DNA of 64,000 nt from an uncultured Leptospira sp. (GCA_964502925.1 CAZCYH010000020.1:442-64441), one strand, 5' to 3'. Positions 2,315-62,080 are shown, numbered from the stretch's first letter. Numbers and translations: made by a program. The notes: generated from the letters alone by a model not told the origin.

Positions 2315-3079
2315 TTATTTCTCTTCGCGCACCAGAATTCTGTAGCTTCCTCCGGTAGTATTATGCCCTTTCATTGCGACGTGAAATCTGCCCTTGGGAA
2401 GGTGCATGCTGATGCCCGATGATGGTTCCGAGCCGGTATTGAAATCATTTCCGATTACTTTGCCCGATTCCATTTTCAGGTCGATGTATGGCGCGAAATT
2501 CGATTGGCCTAGGCGTTTGCCGGTGATGGTATAAAGGCCCTCTTTCTTTACGTCGAAAAGGTACATCTTCATTTCTCCGGATTTCAATGAATCCTTCACC
2601 GCCTGACCGGGAGTGATATCGCTGATGATAATTTCGCCGGCGATGAGTTTGTACGCGCCCGATGAACCGCTATAAGTTCCGACCGTTACGATGTATTTCC
2701 CGGCTTTCAATTACCGCATGATTTTTGCGTTTCTGTTGCCTCCGCCGTCATCATCGCTTTGAACGAGCATACCGTTTGCGTCATACAGCCAGAGAAATGC
2801 GTCGGGTGAAGAGTTGCCGTCTTTTGTGTGGTCGATGCTCACATACGTGTCCTTTTCAATAAACTGGCCGTTGCTGCCTAAACGATCCATGTGCGGTCGT
2901 ATTGGGGTGGCGCCGGTGCACTTGCCGATGAAAGAGATATTTGTTTCCTTTGCGAGCGTAAAAAGATACAGTTTTATTTCATTATCGGCGAGCGCGTCGC
3001 TCAAAGTCTGGTTCAAACCGATGCTTTTAGCTTCAATCGTCCTCACCAACCATTTATAAGGATGTTCCCTTGTGGGCAC
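2315..3079 (-). pseudogene. tandem pre-peptidase C-terminal (PPC)-like domain protein interrupted by an in-frame TAA
   Basis: ORFs 2711..3079 and 2315..2710 are contiguous in the same frame and separated only by a TAA at 2711-2713. Joined, they give two PPC-like repeats (LWLYDANGMLVQSDDDGGGN ... AGKYIVTVGTYSGSSGAYKL ; MYLFDVKKEGLYTITGKR...GSYRILV). The N-terminal 13 codons lie inside intergenic repeat copy A, so the true start is uncertain. Confidence 0.5.
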
Positions 3080-3155
3080 AGTATATGGGTAAAAACCGCT
3101 TTCTTTGATGCTAATTTTAAGGATTAAAGCGGTTTTGAGAGGTGCCCATAATAGT
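3047..3155 (+). repeat. intergenic nested-hairpin repeat, copy A
   Basis: Shares AACCATTT.TAAGGATGTTCCCTTGTGGGCACAGTATAT..AAAACCGCTTTC-loop-GAAAGCGGTTTT.AGAGGTGCCCAT with copies at 5085..5195 and 20717..20838. Confidence 0.75.
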
Positions 3156-3314
3156 TGCCAGCTGTTGTGTGTATGCGTTTAGAAGGCAATAATTGATGAA
3201 AGTTCAAAGGCGTCATTGCCGAAATGTATAGTATGTAAAGGTGGCCGGCATTTTGTTTAAAATCCGTGAAGTGAATGCAAAACGGGTGATGATACAACAG
3301 CAAAGAGGATATAT

Positions 3315-3710: not shown

Positions 3711-4976
3711 TTATATGCGGTGATGCTTGTGGTAGTACATCGCCATATCAGCACGGGCGATAAGCGTTTCGATGTCGTCATTTCCCTCGGGGCTTATCGA
3801 AGCACAACCCCAGGACATGCCCAGTTCTGTTTTCAAAATTGCTTCTGAATTAGTTTCTTTGATTGCCTCGGTCAAGCGCTTCCCAATATTTTCCCCGCAT
3901 CCTTCTTTCGCGTTTATCATCAGCACGGCGAATTCATCGCCGCCCCAGCGCGAGATGATGTCGGTGGTGCGAAATGTTTTGCGCAAAATTCCCGAGGCAA
4001 GTATGAGCGCCTTGTCGCCTTCTGGATGTCCAAACTGGTCGTTAATTTTTTTCATATTGTTAAGGTCGATGAAAAAGAGAACAAGATTCTCTTTGTTTCT
4101 TTTTGCCAGACTCATCTGCTGTTCGGCAAGCTTGATAAAACCACGCCGGTTGTAGAGTCCGGTGAGCTGATCCACCATTGATAGCTCGCGCAGGGTGTTT
4201 TCATAGAGGGTGCGCGCGGTGATGTCCTGCACCTGAACAAGATATCCGTAAATGCCGTTGCCATTTGTCCGAAGCGGGGTGATGAGGACGTCCAGGTGAA
4301 TGATGCCGCTTTTTGATGTCTGGTAGAGGTTGAGAGATCGGATCAAACCGAAATCAAACGGCGCTTCATAGCGGACGGTTTCACCGTTTCGCAATTTTTC
4401 TTTGAATTCATCCGAAACATTTGGATCCTCAAATAATTTGAAACCGCGGACTTCATCGGCCGAACTTACGCCGAAAATATCCAGACACGCGCGATTCACA
4501 TCCAGAAGCGAACCATTTTCGTCATACAATTCAATGCCTATCGGAGAGGACTCGTAGATGAGCCGGAATTTCTCCTCGCTTTCAACAAGTGCCTTTTCGA
4601 GGCTATGCCGCTTGAGAGCAGATTCCACATTTATAATGAGCTCGTGCGCGTTCACCGGTTTTGAAAGAAAGCCGTAGCAGTGAGCGTTTTGGAGCCGTGT
4701 GCGAAGCGATGTGTCGGATGAGGCAGTGATGAAAATAACTGGAATGTGCATTTCAGTGCGAAGGCTGTGTTCAAGATCGATGCCGTCGCACGCATCATCA
4801 TCGAGCATAATATCCACTAATGCGATGTCGGGTTTTGTTTCCCGTGCCACGCGTTCGCCGTCCTTGCAATTTGTTGCAATCCCTGTCACAAGGTAGCCTG
4901 CGTCTTCGAGCATCTTCGATAAGATTTGCGCGATAACGCTATCGTCTTCAACGATGAGTACTTTAGCTGGTTTCAT
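3711..4976 (-). CDS. response-regulator receiver - PAS - GGDEF diguanylate cyclase
   Basis: N-terminal REC domain (VLIVEDDSV...DIALVDIMLDD), central PAS domain, and C-terminal GGDEF domain with an intact active site (RWGGDEFAV). Confidence 0.85.
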   Translation of the reverse strand: MKPAKVLIVEDDSVIAQILSKMLEDAGYLVTGIATNCKDGERVARETKPDIALVDIMLDDDACDGIDLEHSLRTEMHIPVIFITASSDTSLRTRLQNAHCYGFLSKPVNAHELIINVESALKRHSLEKALVESEEKFRLIYESSPIGIELYDENGSLLDVNRACLDIFGVSSADEVRGFKLFEDPNVSDEFKEKLRNGETVRYEAPFDFGLIRSLNLYQTSKSGIIHLDVLITPLRTNGNGIYGYLVQVQDITARTLYENTLRELSMVDQLTGLYNRRGFIKLAEQQMSLAKRNKENLVLFFIDLNNMKKINDQFGHPEGDKALILASGILRKTFRTTDIISRWGGDEFAVLMINAKEGCGENIGKRLTEAIKETNSEAILKTELGMSWGCASISPEGNDDIETLIARADMAMYYHKHHRI

Positions 4977-5084: not shown

Positions 5085-5195
5085 AAAAACCATTTTTATG
5101 GATCTTCCCTTTTGGGCACAATACATTAAGTAAAAACCGTTTTCTTTGATGCTAATTTTTAAGGATGAAAGCGGTTTTTAAAGGTGCCATAAAAT
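5085..5195 (+). repeat. intergenic nested-hairpin repeat, copy B
   Basis: GGGAACTTCTAAAAACCATTTTTATGGATCTTCCCTTTTGGGCACAATAC..AAAACCGTTTTC..GAAAGCGGTTTTTAAAGGTGCCAT. The loop sequence is identical to copy A. Confidence 0.75.
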
Positions 5196-5379
5196 TTTTC
5201 ATGACGCCAAAATGAAAAATGCGATGGAAATTGTGCTTTATGGCTTTGGGTTCGCATGTATTTTGTTTTTCAAAATGTACACGGAAAATTGACAAAGCTG
5301 GCAATATGTGTTGCATAATGTCATAGGTGCAGCTTCCGGTAAGATGCCTGTTGCAATTATAGAGGTATTTTTCTTGGTT

Positions 5380-5865
5380 TTAACGGGCGAATTCAGCAGC
5401 CAACAGCGCTGGATCGCTTGGCAATCCCCACCAGATGTGAAACACCGTCGCTTCTTCTATACATTTATCATAAATTGCACAGTTTTTGTAGGGATAAGAA
5501 TCCACTTCTTCGTCATATTCGCCCTTTTCGATGCGCTCTAACAAGCCCGGTAAATATGCAAGCACCGCAATGGCAATCACATGCGAAATCGACCTTCTAT
5601 AAAATCTCCGCATATCATTAAAATAATCATACTCCCTTTCCAGCATTTTCACCTTCACGCGGAATTTTGGTATTGGCATGCCATCTGCGTCGAATCGCTT
5701 CTGGTATTCAATTCTACCATGTTCTCTCTCGTGTTTTGAATGATGCCGCATTGCGTGGCGCATCACCGCGATGATGAGGTCAATCATCGTCCAGCCCGTG
5801 CGCTTCTCGGCGTCTTTAAGGAGCAATAACACCTCTGTTGTCATCATGTAAGTTGTTTTTATCAT
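5380..5865 (-). CDS. 161-aa multi-copy family protein, copy 1 (function unknown; possibly a Leptospira-type paralogous DUF)
   Basis: MIKTTYMMTTEVLLLLKDAEKRTGWTMIDL...HIWWGLPSDPALLAAEFAR. Near-identical paralogs lie at 48124..48609 and 61432..61917, and a truncated copy at 25856..26089. Confidence 0.75.
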   Translation of the reverse strand: MIKTTYMMTTEVLLLLKDAEKRTGWTMIDLIIAVMRHAMRHHSKHEREHGRIEYQKRFDADGMPIPKFRVKVKMLEREYDYFNDMRRFYRRSISHVIAIAVLAYLPGLLERIEKGEYDEEVDSYPYKNCAIYDKCIEEATVFHIWWGLPSDPALLAAEFAR

Positions 5866-6074
5866 GGCACGACCTCCACAAAGTAAAATGGAAATTCTAT
5901 ATGCAGTAAAAACAACAATACAAATGTATAGTGATTATTGCAAGTAAAAATTATAGCAATTCTAAAAAATATCGAATAAACAATAAATCGGGAATAGCGT
6001 TATGTAATTACATATGTAAAGATAATAATTGCTGTTTTTTTTTGGATTCAAGAGGGCTATTGTATAGTGGCTGG

Positions 6075-20716: not shown

Positions 20717-20838
20717 AAGGAACTTCAAAAAACTATAGTTAAGGATGTTTCCTTGTGGGCACAATATATAGAATAAAACCGCTTTCTTTTTTCGCTTTGT
20801 ACTATGAAGAAAGCGGTTTTTAGAGGTGCCCATCAATA
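20717..20838 (+). repeat. intergenic nested-hairpin repeat, copy C
   Basis: GGAACTTCAAAAAACTATAGTTAAGGATGTTTCCTTGTGGGCACAATATAT..AAAACCGCTTTC..GAAAGCGGTTTTTAGAGGTGCCCAT. It ends 15 nt before the yeeE-like start. Confidence 0.75.
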
Positions 20839-20853
20839 TTCAGGAGTAAAAAT

Positions 20854-25730: not shown

Positions 25731-25855
25731 GAATCACAAAGCTATCAAATTTTTTCGTTTCAAATTGGAAGCTTTTGGCGTATTTATCTTTTAAAAGTAT
25801 AGGCGTCCCTCACCGGAGGATGCCGGTTGTGAATTTTTGGATATTCTGAATTATG

Positions 25856-26089
25856 TTAACGAGCGAATTCAGCTGCGAAGAGTGAGGGGTCGCTGGGTAA
25901 TCCCCACCAGATGTGAAACACGGTTGCTTCTTCTATACATTTATTGTAAATTGCATAGCTTTTGCAGGCATTAGAATCCACTTCCTCGTCATAGGCACCG
26001 CTTTCAATGCGCTCCACCAGTCCCGGCAAATAGGTCAGCACCGCAATCGCGATCACATGCGAAATCGACCTTCTAAAAAACCGTCGCAT
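25856..26089 (-). pseudogene. truncated copy (C-terminal 77 aa) of the 161-aa multi-copy family
   Basis: MRRFFRRSISHVIAIAVLTYLPGLVERIESGAYDEEVD...WWGLPSDPSLFAAEFAR aligns to residues ~85-161 of the full copies. The N-terminal half and the family promoter are absent. Confidence 0.7.
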
Positions 26090-26209
26090 ATCATTAAAAA
26101 AATCATATAAAATGAAAAAAAATTTCTATCACCTCTTGACGATTGGACGGTTTGTATGTTTATTTATAATATATACCTATGGTCTATATTATAAATCGAG
26201 GAGGCAGGC

Positions 26210-29200
26210 ATGCAGACCACGATAATTCAACCAGCCAGAGATAGTGGCAAAAGGACGCTACTACCCCATAAAAAGAATATACTTCGCCATGGCTTGAAAA
26301 TCATCTCAGTGCAAAGAACCTGTGTGCACGACGGGCCTGGCATTCGCACCACCGTTTTTTTTCAGGGGTGCAATCTCGCATGCATCTGGTGTCAGAATCC
26401 CGAAGCGCGGCCGTTTGGAGATGTGCCGGGGCGAGAGTATCGAGATGTGCAGGAAGTGCTCGATATCATTGAAAGGGATGCGGAGTATCTTCGTGCTACC
26501 GGCGGCGGTGTGACGCTTTCCGGTGGCGAGCCTTTGATGCAGCATCCCGAAGCGCTTTTAGCATTTTTACAGGCATTGAAGAAAAGGAACATTTCTATTT
26601 CCGTTGAAACGACGCTCCATGCGCCGTGGCGGAATATCGAAAAAGTTGTGAAATATGTGGATCTTTTCCTGGTCGATTTGAAGGTGGTGGGTGATGATGA
26701 AAAGCACAGGCGCATTACCGGAGCAGATACCTCCCGTATTAAGGCTAACATAAAAAAGCTTCTTTCCATAGGTGGCAAAGTGAAATTTCGAATGGTCATC
26801 GTTCCCGGGTACAATAATTCGGATGATGATATTCGCCGGGCAGCGGAGTACGTACAATCCCTAAGCTTTTCTTCAATTGAACTATTGAAATACCACAATC
26901 TGTATGAAGGCAAGGCTGCAAGGATGAACGTTGCGGTAGAACATCTGCACATTGCGCCGCAGGAGAGCATGGAGGCGCTCAAAGATGCAATATCGAAATT
27001 TCAATCATATGGAATCGATGCGGAATGCTATGATCTTGATTATCCCCGAAAGAAAGCTGCGTTCACCTCGCGCGTGTACGATATTCAGAACGATATCCGG
27101 TCAAGCGAACATCATCTCTGCTTCGAAGTTGCGAAGCTCAAAACCGAATTCTACAGAAAAAACGGCTTTACAAAACCAAATCCAATTCATCGCGCCGAGC
27201 GACTGAAATATGTGCTTTCAAATAAAAAAATTATCATTTATCCCGGAGAGCTTCTGGTGGGCAATTTCACTTCCAAGCGCAAAGGCGGGCAGGTGTGGGA
27301 GGAGCATTATGGTGTGCTTTTTGCTTCAATCCTGCATCAGATACATCGACAGAAACCAGTTGCCTTCAAATGCTCTTTTCGCGATAAGCTTTCGTTCTAT
27401 TTCAATATTTTCCCTTTCTGGCTTAGAAAGGGGATCCTCGCTCGTGTGAATAAAACTCTGCGCGATTTCATCCTTTTAGTAGCGCGCGCATCGGAAATGA
27501 ATGCCGGATTTAATAATAACATGGCCTCGATTGCTCATTTTATTGTGAATTACGAGCGCGTTCTGCGCAACGGCACGCGCGGCCTCATTTCTGAAATTGA
27601 ATCGGCAAAAAAAGCTAATCCTGAGAAAAAGGATTTTTACGATGGCATGATTATCGCGCTGGAAGCGCTCGAAATATTCGCCGTGCGGTATGCGCATGAG
27701 CTTCGCGTGCTTTCGGAAAACGAAAGCGATCCGCTGCGAAAGGAAGAGCTTCGCCGGATGGCGGAAATCTGCGAGCGCGTGCCGAAATATCCCGCGCGAA
27801 CATTCCATGAAGCGCTTCAGAGCATGCTTTTTTTGCATATTGCGCTATGCATCGAATCGTATGAAAACGCCATCTCTCCCGGAAGGCTCGATCAGATTCT
27901 CTATCCGTATTATAAAAAAGACATGGAGGATGGCATCATCGACTACGAAAAGGCGAAGGAATTGCTGGCGCTTTTTATTATTAAAATGGATGAGGTGATT
28001 CTTGTAAACGACGGAGATACCTATCTTCGCATCGGAAGGCTTTTCGAAACGATGTCCACTGACCAGACCGTGACCATGGGGGGCCTTACTCCCGATGGGA
28101 AGGATGCGACGAACGATATCACCTACATGCTGCTTGATATCTGCGAGCTTCAGCCCTATGCCATAAACATGGCGGCGCGCATACATCCAAAAAGCCCAAA
28201 AGCGTACCTGCGAAGAATTGCCGAGGTGTACTTAAACGGTGCGCCCATGCCCGCGCTCTATAACGATTCGATATATATTGACACCTTGCTTTCGCATTAT
28301 GACACCACCATTGAAAATGCGCGCAATTACGCGATTGTGGGCTGCGTCGAGCCGAATGCCTCCGACGATCATTTCGGGAATACCGATTGCGCCAATGTCA
28401 ATGTGACGCTTCCGCTTCTTCAGGCCATCAAAGGTCAGGAAGACGATTTGTGGAATCTCACATTTCGCGAGCAGATTGATAAAATTATAGCGAAATTCAT
28501 TGAATATAATTTCCGCAGAGAGGGGAAAATTTCAAGATTCATACGCACCAAATATGCTTCCGCGCGTCACAGAAGAAAAATTAAAAAAGCATCTCCAACC
28601 TACAATCCTCCTGCATCAATGGATGAGCTTTTGATTAGATACCAAAAAAGGCTGAATGCGCTTGCGCAATCCATTCTGGCGGATCATCAGAAAATCGAAA
28701 AAGTCATACGCACGCATTTCACCACACCGCTTGCTTCCACGCTCTTTGCTAACTGCATTGCAACCGGCATGGATGTCAACGAAGGCGGGGCGCGTTTTAA
28801 TTCCAGCGGCATTCAGGGAGTGGGTATCACCGACGCTGGCGATTCTCTCCACGCGATCGATGAGGTGGTGTTTAAGAAAAAGCTCTATACGATGCGGGAA
28901 GTTATTGATGCGATCGACAATAACTTTGAAGGCGAAAAGAATGCTGAAATACGCAAGGCGCTTTTAGCGGTGCCGAAATTCGGGCAGGATAATTCTCCCG
29001 AAGCGGTTGCGTGGATAAATACAGCGCTTGAAATGTATGTGAATGCGCTCAAGTCCGTGCCGAATGTGCCGCGCAACGGCATTTATTCTGCCGGCTATTA
29101 TGCGCTGAACGTGAGCGATGTGTACGGCTCGAAGACGCCTGCGCTTCCATCGGGAAGGCTCGCCGGCGTGCCGCTTGCGAACAGCATCACTCCGCATTAT

Positions 29201-29545
29201 GGTATGGAGATGACGGATCTCACCTCGGCGCTGAATTCTGTGGCTGGCATCGATTTCAGGTGCTTCGCGCCCAACGGAACCACGGTGACCTTCACGGTTG
29301 ACTCGGCCCTCTTTCAGGGGCCCGATGGCGTGGACAATCTTGCCGGCATCATCGCGTCGTATTTCAAAAAAGGCGGCATGCAGTTTCAGCCAAACGTGCT
29401 CAACAGGGAAATCCTCATCGATGCGTATCATCAACCCGAGAAGTATCCCTACCTCCTGGTGCGCGTGGCCGGATACTGCGCGTATTTCAATGACCTGTCC
29501 GATGATTTAAAGAAAATCATCATTAACAGGACGTGCTACTCGTAA
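26210..29545 (+). CDS. fusion protein: glycyl-radical-enzyme activase (radical SAM) + glycyl radical enzyme (Cys-x-Glu dehydratase/lyase class)
   Basis: Residues ~30-280 match a PFL-AE-type activase (HDGPGIRTTVFFQGCNLACIWCQNPE, GGGVTLSGGEPL). Residues ~310-1111 match a GRE (ERLKYVL..IYPGELLVGN N-terminus; IVGCVEP catalytic Cys-x-Glu; C-terminal glycyl motif LLVRVAGYCAYF). SD GAGGAGG lies 7 nt upstream. Confidence 0.85.
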   Translation: MQTTIIQPARDSGKRTLLPHKKNILRHGLKIISVQRTCVHDGPGIRTTVFFQGCNLACIWCQNPEARPFGDVPGREYRDVQEVLDIIERDAEYLRATGGGVTLSGGEPLMQHPEALLAFLQALKKRNISISVETTLHAPWRNIEKVVKYVDLFLVDLKVVGDDEKHRRITGADTSRIKANIKKLLSIGGKVKFRMVIVPGYNNSDDDIRRAAEYVQSLSFSSIELLKYHNLYEGKAARMNVAVEHLHIAPQESMEALKDAISKFQSYGIDAECYDLDYPRKKAAFTSRVYDIQNDIRSSEHHLCFEVAKLKTEFYRKNGFTKPNPIHRAERLKYVLSNKKIIIYPGELLVGNFTSKRKGGQVWEEHYGVLFASILHQIHRQKPVAFKCSFRDKLSFYFNIFPFWLRKGILARVNKTLRDFILLVARASEMNAGFNNNMASIAHFIVNYERVLRNGTRGLISEIESAKKANPEKKDFYDGMIIALEALEIFAVRYAHELRVLSENESDPLRKEELRRMAEICERVPKYPARTFHEALQSMLFLHIALCIESYENAISPGRLDQILYPYYKKDMEDGIIDYEKAKELLALFIIKMDEVILVNDGDTYLRIGRLFETMSTDQTVTMGGLTPDGKDATNDITYMLLDICELQPYAINMAARIHPKSPKAYLRRIAEVYLNGAPMPALYNDSIYIDTLLSHYDTTIENARNYAIVGCVEPNASDDHFGNTDCANVNVTLPLLQAIKGQEDDLWNLTFREQIDKIIAKFIEYNFRREGKISRFIRTKYASARHRRKIKKASPTYNPPASMDELLIRYQKRLNALAQSILADHQKIEKVIRTHFTTPLASTLFANCIATGMDVNEGGARFNSSGIQGVGITDAGDSLHAIDEVVFKKKLYTMREVIDAIDNNFEGEKNAEIRKALLAVPKFGQDNSPEAVAWINTALEMYVNALKSVPNVPRNGIYSAGYYALNVSDVYGSKTPALPSGRLAGVPLANSITPHYGMEMTDLTSALNSVAGIDFRCFAPNGTTVTFTVDSALFQGPDGVDNLAGIIASYFKKGGMQFQPNVLNREILIDAYHQPEKYPYLLVRVAGYCAYFNDLSDDLKKIIINRTCYS

Positions 29546-45514: not shown

Positions 45515-46747
45515 TCACAAAAACTCCAGAACCAGTAGCGTGATATCGTCCTCAATGGGCGCGCCCTGCGCGTGCTGAAGAACATCGGTGTAAATTTTAC
45601 GCGCCATGCCGTCTTCGTTTTTTTTGATGAATGATTCAGCTGCCTGCTTTAAACGCTTGTGGCCGTACATCTCGTGGTTTTTATCGAACTGTTCGATGAT
45701 GCCATCGGTGAAGAAAATCAGTCGGTCGCCCGATTCGAAATCGTATTCGGATTCATCGTACCGCGCTTCATCCAGAAGCCCAAGCCCGGGACCCGTGCCT
45801 TCAATATGAAGAAAAGAGCTATCGCGTGCTTTCCAGAAAAGCGGATGATGATGCCCGGCCTTTGCAGTGATGATCTTTCCATTTGAAATATCGATGAGAG
45901 CATAGTAGCTTGTTGCAAAAAGCTTGCGGGAAAGCACCTGGCAAAAATGCTGGTTCAGCTTCGTCATGAGCTGCGAGGGTCTGGTGCCGTAATCGGGTGT
46001 GAGCAAGGAAAATGCGCTTTTGAGAATGCCCGTGGCAAGTGCTGCAGTTACGCCATGCCCCTCAACATCGGCGATGATGACGGCGATGAGATCATCCCCA
46101 ATCTTTACGATATTCATAAAATCGCCTCCCACTTCAATGCAGGGATGGTAGATGAATTCGTGCCGGACGCGAGGATGAATCTGGCGGTTTTCTTCCATGA
46201 CGTCGGAGTTTATAAATATGCTCTGAATCTGCTGCGCCACCGAAAGATCGCGGTTGATGATTTCCAGTTCCGCGCTCTTTTCTCGAAGGGTGTGCTGAGA
46301 AAAGGTGATGTTTGCCAGCGCGTCGCGAAACCGCGCAAACGTTTCTTTGAGGCAATTTTTGTAGAATATGGTTGCAAGATCTCTGTTTTTTGCTAAAAGG
46401 ATATCGAAGTCTTTCTTATCGAGCTGGAAAATTTCGCTATCTTCAATGGTTGTGACGCTTGCCGAGCGCTTCAGATTGTCGATAAGTGAAAATTCGCCGA
46501 AGTAACTTCCGGCGCCAAGCAGACTTATGAATATTTCATCATCCTCTTCATCTGCTCTCGTGACCTTCACTGAGCCGCGCTTGATGATATACATGGCTTC
46601 GCCCGGATCTCCCTCGCGGATGATGGTTTCATCGGGTCGGCGTTGCAAAGGTTTGAGCAGCGGTGTAATTTCATCGAGCAGGGCTTCGTCCATTCCCTCA
46701 AATATCTTTATGCTTTTGAGTATTTTCTTAAGTTCGGGTGAATACAT
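45515..46747 (-). CDS. cNMP-binding domain - PP2C/SpoIIE-type serine phosphatase
   Basis: N-terminal cNMP-binding fold (GEFSLIDNLKRSASV) and a C-terminal PP2C domain (IADVEGHGV...FFTDGIIE). Confidence 0.8.
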   Translation of the reverse strand: MYSPELKKILKSIKIFEGMDEALLDEITPLLKPLQRRPDETIIREGDPGEAMYIIKRGSVKVTRADEEDDEIFISLLGAGSYFGEFSLIDNLKRSASVTTIEDSEIFQLDKKDFDILLAKNRDLATIFYKNCLKETFARFRDALANITFSQHTLREKSAELEIINRDLSVAQQIQSIFINSDVMEENRQIHPRVRHEFIYHPCIEVGGDFMNIVKIGDDLIAVIIADVEGHGVTAALATGILKSAFSLLTPDYGTRPSQLMTKLNQHFCQVLSRKLFATSYYALIDISNGKIITAKAGHHHPLFWKARDSSFLHIEGTGPGLGLLDEARYDESEYDFESGDRLIFFTDGIIEQFDKNHEMYGHKRLKQAAESFIKKNEDGMARKIYTDVLQHAQGAPIEDDITLLVLEFL

Positions 46748-48048: not shown

Positions 48049-48123
48049 AGGATGGTGAGCGAAGGCATAAGTGTCCCTCCCGGCATTATGTCTGTTAGTA
48101 GTACATGGATATTTTGCGTGTTG

Positions 48124-48609
48124 TTAACGGACGAACTCAGCGGCTAATAGCGCTGGGTCGCTGGGCAACCCCCACCAGATGTGAAAAACAGTCGCTTCTT
48201 CTATACATTTATCGTAAATTGCACAGCTTTTGTAGGGATAAGAATCCACTTCCTCGTCGTACGCACCGCTTTCAATGCGCTCCACGAGTGCTGGCAAATA
48301 CTCCATCACCGCGATCGCAATCACATGCGAAATCGACCTTCTAAAAAACCTCCGCATATCGTTAAAATAATCATATTCTCTTTCGAGGATTTTAATTTTC
48401 ACGCGGAATTTTTTAATTGGCATTCCATCTTTATCAAACCGGTTCTGGTATGCAATTCTTCCGTGCTCCCTTTCGTACTTTGCGTGATGCCGCATTGCAT
48501 AACGCATTACTGCTATTATTAAATCAATCATCGTCCATCCCGTACGCTTTTCGGCGTCTTTGAGTAGCAATAACACCTCCTGGGTCATCATGTAGGTTGT
48601 TTTGATCAT
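48124..48609 (-). CDS. 161-aa multi-copy family protein, copy 3
   Basis: MIKTTYMMTQEVLLLLKDAEKRTGWTMIDL... with the conserved upstream promoter TTGAAA-N17-TATTGT. Trimmed from ORF 48124..48711. Confidence 0.75.
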   Translation of the reverse strand: MIKTTYMMTQEVLLLLKDAEKRTGWTMIDLIIAVMRYAMRHHAKYEREHGRIAYQNRFDKDGMPIKKFRVKIKILEREYDYFNDMRRFFRRSISHVIAIAVMEYLPALVERIESGAYDEEVDSYPYKSCAIYDKCIEEATVFHIWWGLPSDPALLAAEFVR

Positions 48610-48823
48610 CATTCGGCCTCCAAATAGAATTATGTTCATTGACGAGCTGCATAAACAACAATACGTATGTATAGTATTTTTTTCAAGCACAAAATTCTCT
48701 CTGAGTTTCATCCAGAATTGTAATTGACGTAACTCTCAATGTCTGCTTTTTATATAACCAATTGATACATGGCTGCTATCTTTATCCTCTACAAAATTGA
48801 GGCACAATCGAAAGTTTTTTATT

Positions 48824-61232: not shown

Positions 61233-61431
61233 GAGTTCCTCCTGTGGGTAGTAAGTGTCGACGCGCCGCAAATGGAGTGGGAAGATGGGGCGTGCCGTGA
61301 AAAGAGTTACTCTGGCATTTTGCGAGGCAATGTGCTGCTTGTCAAGAAGTAAGGGATGTATATTAAGCGGAGTCAAAGGTAGCCCTTCCGGTGAGATGCC
61401 GGGGGTTGATTTTGGGTTATTTTAAATTGTA

Positions 61432-61917
61432 TTAACGGGCAAATTCTGCGGCTAACAGCGCCGGATCGCTCGGTAATCCCCACCAGATGTGAAACACCGT
61501 CGCTTCTTCTATACATTTATCGTAAATTGCACAGCTTTTGTAGGGATAAGAATCCACTTCCTCGTCATACTCACCACTTTCAATGCGCTCTACCAATTCA
61601 GGGAGATATGCCAGCACCGCAATCGCAATTACATGCGAAATCGACCGCCTGAAAAACCTCCGCATATCATTGAAATAATCGTATTCCCGTTGATGAAATT
61701 TCACTTTCACCCGAACTTTTGGTATCGGCATGCCCTCTGCGTCGAAGCGCTTCTGGTATGCAATTCTTCCATGCTCCCTTTCATATTTTGCGTGATGCCG
61801 CATTGCATAGCGCATGACCGCGACGACAAGATCAATCATTGTCCATCCGGTGCGCTTCTCTGCGTCTTTGAGCAGCAGCAATACTTCGTGCGTCATCATG
61901 TACGTGGTTTTTATCAT
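61432..61917 (-). CDS. 161-aa multi-copy family protein, copy 4
   Basis: MIKTTYMMTHEVLLLLKDAEKRTGWTMIDL...AEFAR. About 90% nucleotide identity to copies 1 and 3, and the same upstream promoter motif. Confidence 0.75.
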   Translation of the reverse strand: MIKTTYMMTHEVLLLLKDAEKRTGWTMIDLVVAVMRYAMRHHAKYEREHGRIAYQKRFDAEGMPIPKVRVKVKFHQREYDYFNDMRRFFRRSISHVIAIAVLAYLPELVERIESGEYDEEVDSYPYKSCAIYDKCIEEATVFHIWWGLPSDPALLAAEFAR

Positions 61918-62080
61918 GGTTCGTCCCCGTATTGAATAGGAATTTTAAATCTCAATTATGTATAACAAAACAAATGTATAGTATTATTTCAAGCAAAATT
62001 TTGCTCCTCTCATTTGCATCACCCGATTTTAATCAATTGACAGATTGTGTTTTAACGCACTCTGTGGTGCGATTGAAATC

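Follow-up and report, generated by a model that had tools for sequence, protein, structure and literature searches.

A multi-copy Spirochaetota gene family encoding predicted single-chain ribbon-helix-helix proteins, with conserved promoter and 3' blocks, in an uncultured Leptospira sp.

Introduction

Autorepression is typical of ribbon-helix-helix (RHH) proteins; CopG, Arc and Mnt, for instance, act at a (pseudo)palindromic operator overlapping the promoter of their own gene. Repressors of the CopG/Arc/MetJ type (Pfam RHH_1, RHH_3 and RHH_5) are 45–90 aa in length and require homodimerisation. In TraY of the F plasmid the whole RHH dimer fold is contained in one polypeptide, which contacts DNA through strands b1 and b2; TraY monomers line up in trains that bind and organise the DNA (10.1101/2024.12.19.629322). 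The AvtR-type regulators of archaeal lipothrixviruses and rudiviruses and the Agrobacterium protein VirC2 have the same single-chain double-RHH fold (4hv0, 2rh3), and AvtR is labelled a transcriptional regulator in its structure entries. Here we describe a multi-copy family of 161-aa proteins, predicted to adopt a fold of this kind, in a 64,000-nt stretch of DNA from an uncultured Leptospira sp. (GCA_964502925.1, CAZCYH010000020.1:442-64441), which we call the window. Three intact genes (copies A, B and C) and one fragment (copy D) lie in it, all on the minus strand, and we compared them with the copies in a sister genome, the metagenome-assembled genome (MAG) CAKZSV01, whose loci carry L-numbers. 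On balance, we favor the view that these genes encode stand-alone, auto- and cross-repressing DNA-binding proteins, the remnant of an ancient burst of cassette insertion.

Protein family and predicted fold

Searches of the window proteins against Pfam, NCBIfam, PHROG and PADLOC returned no meaningful match; the Pfam search had been suggested in the initial annotation, an earlier reading of the window made from its sequence alone. A PADLOC match to HEAT-ARM_XIII (E 6e-4, one copy only) and matches to E4P-dehydrogenase and Ta0938 (E>0.03) were set aside as noise. A small profile, run exhaustively with HMMER against 1.84 billion representatives, found 396 clusters at E<=1e-3, mostly of ~150 aa, these ~400 family clusters being defined at 50% identity, and a word-indexed search of 5.8 billion proteins found only 16 clusters, each at least 83% identical to the query. 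Where source names were present they read only "hypothetical protein [Spirochaetota bacterium]" or "[bacterium]", with several from the sister MAG. As far as these sequences indicate, the family is new and restricted to Spirochaetota, within the known RHH superfamily, in agreement with the earlier suggestion of a lineage-specific spirochaete paralog family, all named members being Spirochaetota. The specific comparison with DUF1564 (PF07600) failed: in searches of sequences against the PF07600 profile, the four window proteins gave no match, nor did 102 diverse members at E<=0.01 or at E<=10. DUF1564 is likewise a phylum-restricted, multi-copy family of small "hypothetical" Spirochaetota proteins, but the searchable literature held no link between it and the RHH fold, and nothing relevant on DUF1564, PF07600 or RHH paralog families in Leptospira.

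The fold was predicted with AlphaFold2 for the copy C protein from a 102-sequence alignment (pLDDT 92.4, pTM 0.86), an earlier model from 15 close sequences (pLDDT 53) having been discarded. The predicted order is b2-9, a10-23, a27-40; b67-74, a76-89, a93-114; b129-136, b139-146, a152-160, which corresponds to two tandem RHH repeats in one chain followed by a C-terminal beta-hairpin and helix. Structure prediction had been proposed as a way of looking for a DNA-binding fold, and the model supplies one for a protein in which the initial annotation could assign no motif. A Foldseek search of the PDB ranked TraY chains from the F relaxosome highest (E 0.011, target-normalised TM 0.67, 106 columns, rmsd 3.8 A), with an alignment that covers both repeats of the predicted model, ahead of AvtR, DndE and VirC2; in a viral structure library the matches were RHH proteins from rod-shaped and filamentous viruses of archaea. 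The family profile matched CopG in the PDB (E 0.003, residues 1-43), and the loop Ser motifs of the two repeats, G.SRS in repeat 1 and K.SVS in repeat 2, are in register, the repeats themselves aligning weakly (hhalign local P 0.004). Given the model and these matches, the product is very likely a single-chain RHH DNA-binding protein.

The window protein thus resembles TraY, its best Foldseek match, in having two predicted RHH repeats per chain, but the two are only 11–13% identical in the structural alignment. It differs further in its extra conserved C-terminal beta-hairpin and helix (residues ~120-161) and in being chromosomal, present in ~40 copies and equipped with its own promoter at each. 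The TraY family was absent among the Pfam matches listed (best 25 of 75 families at E<=10, 102 members), and no relaxase, oriT or conjugation genes were found among the neighbors of the copies; with neither a transfer context nor a sequence match, we rejected membership in the TraY family. The likeness to AvtR and VirC2 is at the level of the fold only (TM 0.3–0.6, E ~1 or worse against the PDB entries), and those proteins come from other hosts and contexts, are not multi-copy and lack the C-terminal hairpin domain. With the CopG/Arc/MetJ repressors the window protein has the b-a-a topology and the loop Ser motif in common, but it would consist of two fused, diverged repeats, and no family member reaches the Pfam gathering threshold for the RHH families.

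An RHH domain followed by a C-terminal tail also raises the idea that these are type II antitoxin genes, either orphaned or degenerate, the tail binding a toxin that has been lost or that is supplied by a short open reading frame (ORF) in the conserved block 3' of the gene. Weak profile matches to the RHH antitoxins MazE6, MazE7 and VapB26 and to DUF6364 and DUF6290 point this way, as does a Shine-Dalgarno (SD)-like GGAAGGGA followed by an NTG start at +55 after the stop codon in 28/31 copies. However, the ORFs opening at +55 vary in length from 4 to 69 aa and are unconserved beyond ~8 codons, so that a conserved downstream protein was rejected, and no toxin family recurs among the neighbors of at least 27 loci. 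Antitoxins also dimerise via a single RHH, not a single-chain tandem RHH as predicted here, and the sole PADLOC match was the spurious HEAT-repeat one. We rejected the antitoxin reading and regard it as highly improbable.

Copy number, selection and age

The initial annotation recognised four copies, which is a great underestimate for the genome as a whole. The genome-wide count that it recommended, carried out on one genome per GTDB species, found 41 loci, all in the single MAG CAKZSV01. They comprise 25 full-length copies, 12 cut by contig ends and 4 internal fragments, equivalent to 37–41 distinct loci, and the window's own assembly carries copies on at least 9 other contigs. The GAPDH of the window's assembly falls into one cluster, at 90% or more, with that of a "Spirochaetes bacterium" MAG. 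In the DNA that flanks the copies, window and sister MAG are 88–94% identical, and each of the four window copies lies at a syntenic MAG position (5380/L006, 48124/L019, 61432/L018, 25856/L001).

Within the window, pairwise E-values of 1e-98 to 1e-109 place the similarity of the copies far beyond chance. The three intact proteins are 88.2–89.4% identical, and their DNA is 78.6–80.1% identical over ~630 nt including flanks (BLASTN), with a mean of 83.0% for the coding sequence (CDS); the ~90% nucleotide identity claimed earlier is approached only by the amino acid identity of 88–89%. The GC content of the copies (44–47%, compared with 46.4% for the window) shows no anomaly.

Among 28 full-length CDSs, dN was 0.068, dS 0.79 and dN/dS 0.086, with identities of 0.90/0.95/0.69 at codon positions 1/2/3. 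The copies are old, functional genes under strong purifying selection, not recent duplicates. The codon-position identities fit the sense frame, and antisense ORFs of ~100–160 aa that overlap the gene in 22 loci were dismissed as shadow ORFs. Over the ~40 paralogs, the second repeat and the C-terminal module are the most conserved parts, and in the two beta-strands 56–62% of positions never vary, K67, R69 and K71 among them, while variable sites are scattered over loops and helix surfaces and form no hypervariable patch.

We considered the alternative, raised in the initial annotation, that the copies stem from recent duplication, ongoing gene conversion or an active mobile cassette, and that their flanks are alike because the copies are young. 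The cassette-like unit with definable ends, its presence at 37–41 dispersed loci (at 12 of them the MAG assembly is interrupted by a contig end), an empty site in GCA_026419015.1 and two significant shared tracts all speak for such a history. Recent duplication, however, is contradicted by the paralog dS of ~0.79 and by a nearly random 5' untranslated region (5'UTR), where young copies would be near-identical, as well as by the synteny of 4/4 window copies with a genome that is ~10% different in the flanks and whose flanking genes differ at dS ~0.25–0.65. The syntenic window-MAG pairs had dS values of 0.62–0.86, against 0.25–0.65 (median ~0.38) for ten flanking genes. Nor did gene conversion emerge as the main cause. 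Two copies taken from one genome resemble each other no more closely than copies taken from different genomes: CDS identity averaged 0.830 for pairs in the window genome and 0.851 for pairs in the MAG, against 0.842 for non-syntenic and 0.849–0.886 for syntenic pairs that join the two genomes. The copies thus show no genome-wide concerted evolution. Of 378 pairs, only 2 gave a significant shared tract in a GENECONV-style permutation test, L002-L006 (p<0.005) and L011-L022 (CDS nt 297-391, p~0.02). Gene conversion is therefore sporadic only. Since no terminal inverted repeat, target-site duplication or transposase was found and neither viral contigs nor JGI metagenomes gave a match, we consider it quite unlikely that recency explains the copies, and as a present-day process this explanation is largely refuted. 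The flanks appear instead to be conserved by selection and not by recency, because the neutral parts of the unit are near random while the promoter and 3' blocks have been kept.

The L002-L006 tract is a clear case of local gene conversion between neighboring copies. These two copies lie ~7.5 kb apart in opposite orientation on MAG contig CAKZSV010000002.1 and share an identical 117-nt tract (CDS nt 49-165) that spans 60 consecutive polymorphic sites.

Promoter block and proposed autoregulation

The unit of ~640 bp is composed of a T-tract, a sigma-70-like promoter with a palindromic spacer, a variable 5'UTR, GGAGG, the CDS and a 3' block. When 39 upstream regions are aligned, of which the MAG supplies 36 and the window 3, the -35 element is CTTGAAA or CTTGCAA, preceded by the T-tract, and the -10-like hexamer is TATTGT, TAGTGT or TATAGT. 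The spacer holds ATAC-TATACATATGTA, which includes the palindrome TACATATGTA, and its information content of 1.4–1.7 bits per position equals that of the -35 hexamer. By comparison, the ~45-nt 5'UTR between promoter and GGAGG is nearly random (pairwise identity 0.3–0.45), and its RNA shows no conserved fold over 32 copies (mean z -0.3). The block had been noticed in the initial annotation as TTG[A/C]AA-N17-TATTGT with a ACTATACAT core, and it does precede each of the three intact copies, with a spacing of N16 or N17, and is absent from the rest of the window. Its upstream conservation, put at ~60 nt, in fact reaches ~85–90 nt from the ATG and is bipartite, the promoter block being separated from GGAGG by the variable 5'UTR. 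At <=3 mismatches, AATACTATACATATGTATTGT occurs in the window only upstream of the three intact copies (chance expectation 0), and a position weight matrix (PWM) found the promoter block exclusively upstream of family genes in the 368 kb scanned. A reading of the promoter as one for an extracytoplasmic-function or other alternative sigma factor was dropped, its spacing being unsuited when judged by eye. One extra TTTACATATGTA, with a single mismatch to the operator core, lies at 6009-6020, ~90 nt upstream of the copy A operator; because it is not conserved at the syntenic L006, it is probably due to chance.

These features suggest a mechanism in which each copy would form a monocistronic unit from which a small cytoplasmic DNA-binding protein is expressed. 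With two RHH repeats in one chain, a monomer would form the usual RHH "dimer", and its two beta-strands could insert in the major groove of ATAC-TATACATATGTA between the -35 and -10 elements; in the copy C promoter block (61960-61999) the stretch expected to be protected by the protein is ATACTATACATATGTA. That the spacer contains an autoregulatory operator is the interpretation toward which we lean. Each protein would then repress its own promoter, and it may also repress those of all other copies. We infer that auto- plus cross-repression is the most likely arrangement because the palindromic spacer is under selection, the DNA-reading strands are largely invariant and the motif is found only at these promoters; cross-repression in particular is expected, given how little either the operators or the DNA-contacting strands differ from copy to copy. 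The outcome would be that ~40 genes behave as one dosage-controlled multi-copy gene. Somewhat weaker support is provided by distant family members from at least 6 other genomes, whose putative promoters likewise contain a palindrome or have one close by.

Several observations weigh against this interpretation. By sequence, RHH membership is weak: RHH_1, RHH_3, RHH_5 and DUF6364 were each matched by 11–16 of the 102 members, the best E-values for RHH_1, RHH_3 and RHH_5 (1.4e-4 to 3.8e-3; 1e-4 to 1e-2 overall) fall under the curated cut-offs, and the window proteins match none of them. A simple promoter scan calls only copy B sigma-70-like (TTGAAA-17-TATTGT, 9/12 matches), with copies A and C just below its threshold. 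A TTCGTAT motif lies ~40–75 nt upstream of the ATG in 9/11 distant members, but it is borderline against shuffles, the count observed being equal to the 95th percentile of the null, and a single genome contributes four of the sequences. The conserved spacer could bind another factor or belong to an unusual promoter. Finally, the proposal leaves unaccounted for the retention of ~40 near-identical repressors in a cell, and no role accounts for the conserved 3' block.

It is also conceivable that the family encodes an abundant architectural or nucleoid-associated protein that bends DNA in the manner of TraY, with dosage achieved through gene number and the upstream block serving as a strong promoter and not an operator. 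The predicted TraY-like single-chain fold, the assembly of TraY into monomer trains, the ~40 identical promoters, in each of which a T-tract accompanies a consensus-like -35, and the absence of linkage to any specific target gene are consistent with such a role. A plain strong promoter, however, requires neither a palindromic spacer nor one conserved like the hexamers, and known nucleoid proteins are usually single-copy. We judge this alternative to be unlikely.

The 3' block extends ~66 nt after the stop codon and is conserved across the 31 copies of the tail alignment as TAACA..AAAAT..AACCGGCAT..CCGGAAGGGAcACCTATGC. The initial annotation had let identity end ~5 nt past the stop, but already among the window copies BLASTN alignments continue for ~60 nt. 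A 3' hairpin CCGG-N7-CCGG was rejected, as RNAalifold gave no consensus structure, the helix was 73% paired compared with 71% in shuffles, and covariation support was lacking. A terminator scan of the window copies found no intrinsic terminator on the sense strand after the gene; on the opposite strand, the copy C block is terminator-like at 61385-61405.

Given this lack of a sense-strand terminator, and because the reading frame opened at +55 in copy C, L007 and L011 runs on into a long downstream ORF, one might suspect a portable regulatory module whose promoter and 3' SD and ATG drive or translationally couple the downstream gene. The three run-ons into downstream genes are attributable to chance, however; the enzymes downstream of copy C and L011 start further down, that of copy C with its own SD, and the downstream gene is co-oriented in just 13 of 26 loci and convergent in the other 13. 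The even orientation count contradicts an operon leader, and there is only a very slim chance that the cassette serves as such a module. The neighbors are unrelated housekeeping and signaling genes (MoeA, a ThiI-like protein, SDR, MATE, HAD, GGDEF, TruA and similar), with no recurrent family across at least 27 loci. Because the neighbors are non-recurrent and the orientations split 13:13, the unit is best seen as stand-alone.

Past insertion and mobility

The initial annotation had pictured a self-contained cassette with its own promoter in unrelated neighborhoods, and this description agrees with the non-recurrent neighbors, the lack of orientation bias and the traces of past insertion at one locus. 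At L024 in the MAG, a copy sits between a gene for a 188-aa protein and truA. In GCA_026419015.1 ("Spirochaetes bacterium", flanks 70–77% identical) the corresponding gap is 146 bp instead of 989 bp and represents an empty site; the extra DNA at L024 consists of the cassette and a fragment of an unrelated palindromic repeat. The empty site there, combined with the window-MAG synteny, places the burst after the split from the GCA_026419015.1 lineage and before the separation of the window organism and the MAG. We suggest that their ancestor amplified one member (promoter, gene and 3' block) into ~40 intergenic sites, and that the copies would since have stayed put and evolved mostly independently under strong purifying selection.

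The MAG also contains divergent paralogs that are 43% identical to the amplified family, at L024 1272-1754 and L017 1-222 (-). The former has a different promoter with a 9-bp inverted repeat (TTGACAAAA...TTTTGTCAA), has a 61%-identical syntenic counterpart in GCA_026419015.1, and seems to represent the ancestral, ordinary low-copy state of the family.

Aligning the flanks, as the initial annotation advised, did define the ~640-bp unit but yielded no consistent target-site duplications, and no consistent terminal inverted repeats or direct repeats were found at the unit ends in 26 copies. The absence of transposases and terminal inverted repeats had been noted earlier and was upheld, with no transposase among the neighbors. 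An insertion sequence or miniature inverted-repeat transposable element (MITE) was rejected for want of consistent terminal repeats, target duplications and transposase, although at dS ~0.8 short target-site duplications could have decayed. Integron cassettes are promoterless, stand in a tandem array beside intI and each end in attC. The copies described here are single, dispersed in unrelated intergenic regions and provided with their own promoters, with a small 3' hairpin that lacks covariation, and an integron cassette was likewise rejected on these features. Relatives of the expanded subfamily were not found in IMG/VR viral contigs or JGI metagenomes.

A more speculative view, which we hold to be distinctly doubtful, is that the ~640-bp unit is a minimal selfish cassette in which the left palindrome and the right block are also cis mobilisation sites and the RHH protein is the end-recognition factor, TraY- or excisionase-like, that recruits a host recombination or replication enzyme. 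If true, it would explain the occupation of ~40 intergenic sites in the absence of transposase, inverted repeats and target duplications. Either way, dispersal without recognisable transposition machinery poses a concrete mobility puzzle.

Copies and other features of the window

The positions of the copies and their flanking blocks are given in Table 1. For copy B, a 195-aa ORF reaching to 48711 is an in-frame upstream extension, and the true start is fixed by GGAGG and the alignment. Copy D lost its promoter and the 5' 233 nt of its CDS through a ~385-bp deletion, apparently one that joined short similar A/T-rich stretches; because the syntenic L001 is full length, we regard copy D as a pseudogene made by deletion. 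Family-invariant residues are changed in it (Y124N, P125A).

Table 1. Family copies and conserved flanking blocks in the 64,000-nt window
Feature	Position	Strand	Evidence and remarks
Copy A, intact 161-aa CDS	5380..5865	-	ORF, BLASTN; 88-89% aa identity to B and C; syntenic with L006
Copy A promoter and putative operator block: T-tract, -35 TTGCAA, conserved spacer ...CACTATACATTTGTA, -10 TATTGT	5910..5949	-	PWM 30 bits; 21-mer match 5915-5935; 39-copy alignment
Copy A conserved 3' block, +1..+66 after stop; SD-like GGAAG and ATG at 5324-5322	5314..5379	-	31-tail alignment; BLASTN to ~5320
Copy B, intact 161-aa CDS	48124..48609	-	ORF, BLASTN; syntenic with L019
Copy B promoter and putative operator block, TTGAAA-17-TATTGT, core AATACTATACATACGTATTGT	48653..48692	-	Promoter scan 48686-48658; PWM 36 bits; one-mismatch match
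Copy B conserved 3' block	48058..48123	-	31-tail alignment
Copy C, intact 161-aa CDS; protein used for modelling	61432..61917	-	ORF, BLASTN; AlphaFold pLDDT 92.4; syntenic with L018
Copy C promoter and putative operator block	61960..61999	-	PWM 54 bits; match 61965-61985
Copy C conserved 3' block; TTG at +55 in frame with downstream SDR ORF by chance	61366..61431	-	Tail alignment
Copy D pseudogene, codons ~79-161 only; fragment 25856-26089, homology to 26108	25856..26108	-	BLASTN; synteny with full-length L001
Copy D conserved 3' block, kept	25790..25855	-	Tail alignment

Some neighboring features deserve mention in their own right. Downstream of copy C, at 61376-61239 (-) and upstream of the SDR gene, the +55 TTG opens 47 codons in the SDR frame and yields a 309-aa ORF. 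The SDR gene has its own AGGAGG and ATG (MKVQELF...), and the extension is probably fortuitous; gene callers could mis-start the SDR there. Copy D abuts the start of a single 1111-aa ORF at 26210-29545 (+), in which a radical-SAM activase (Radical_SAM, Fer4_12) is fused to a PFL-like glycyl-radical enzyme (PFL-like, Gly_radical), functions that are usually arranged as two genes.

Signaling genes are frequent near the copies (45515-46747, 3711-4976 and several MAG loci), among them cyclic nucleotide monophosphate (cNMP)-binding SpoIIE-type phosphatases and a PAS-GGDEF response regulator. The cNMP-binding family recurs in 6 loci, 4 of which are two syntenic window-MAG pairs (L006/W5380 and L019/W48124), so that its recurrence likely reflects general genome content and not linkage.

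A separate ~110-nt nested-palindrome repeat, resembling a MITE or a repetitive extragenic palindrome, occurs at 3048-3156, 5088-5197 and 20731-20840 (...AAGGATGTTCCCTTGTGGGCAC...AAAACCGCTTTC-loop-GAAAGCGGTTTT...GGTGCCCA), and its core resembles a bidirectional terminator. It is also found 60–90 nt upstream of the cassettes L006, L008, L024 and L031 in the MAG. Since it is present upstream of L006 and absent at the syntenic window site, this repeat has moved later than the RHH cassette did. Over the window, neither Rfam at gathering threshold nor a tRNA scan gave a match.

Conclusions

A family that no domain database covers now has a confident predicted fold, and the small group of known monomeric RHH proteins (TraY, VirC2 and AvtR) gains a member encoded on a bacterial chromosome. 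The predicted architecture of tandem RHH repeats with a C-terminal hairpin is unusual, as is the ~40-fold amplification of a gene together with its putative operator. The repeats have practical consequences for genome analysis, in that they break MAG assemblies, with 12 contig ends lying inside copies, and the conserved flanks of the units could be taken wrongly for evidence of recent transfer. If the proposed regulation is correct, the family would represent a natural set of numerous, nearly identical repressor-operator pairs among which cross-talk is expected, and it may be useful for asking how paralogous regulators are retained or insulated.

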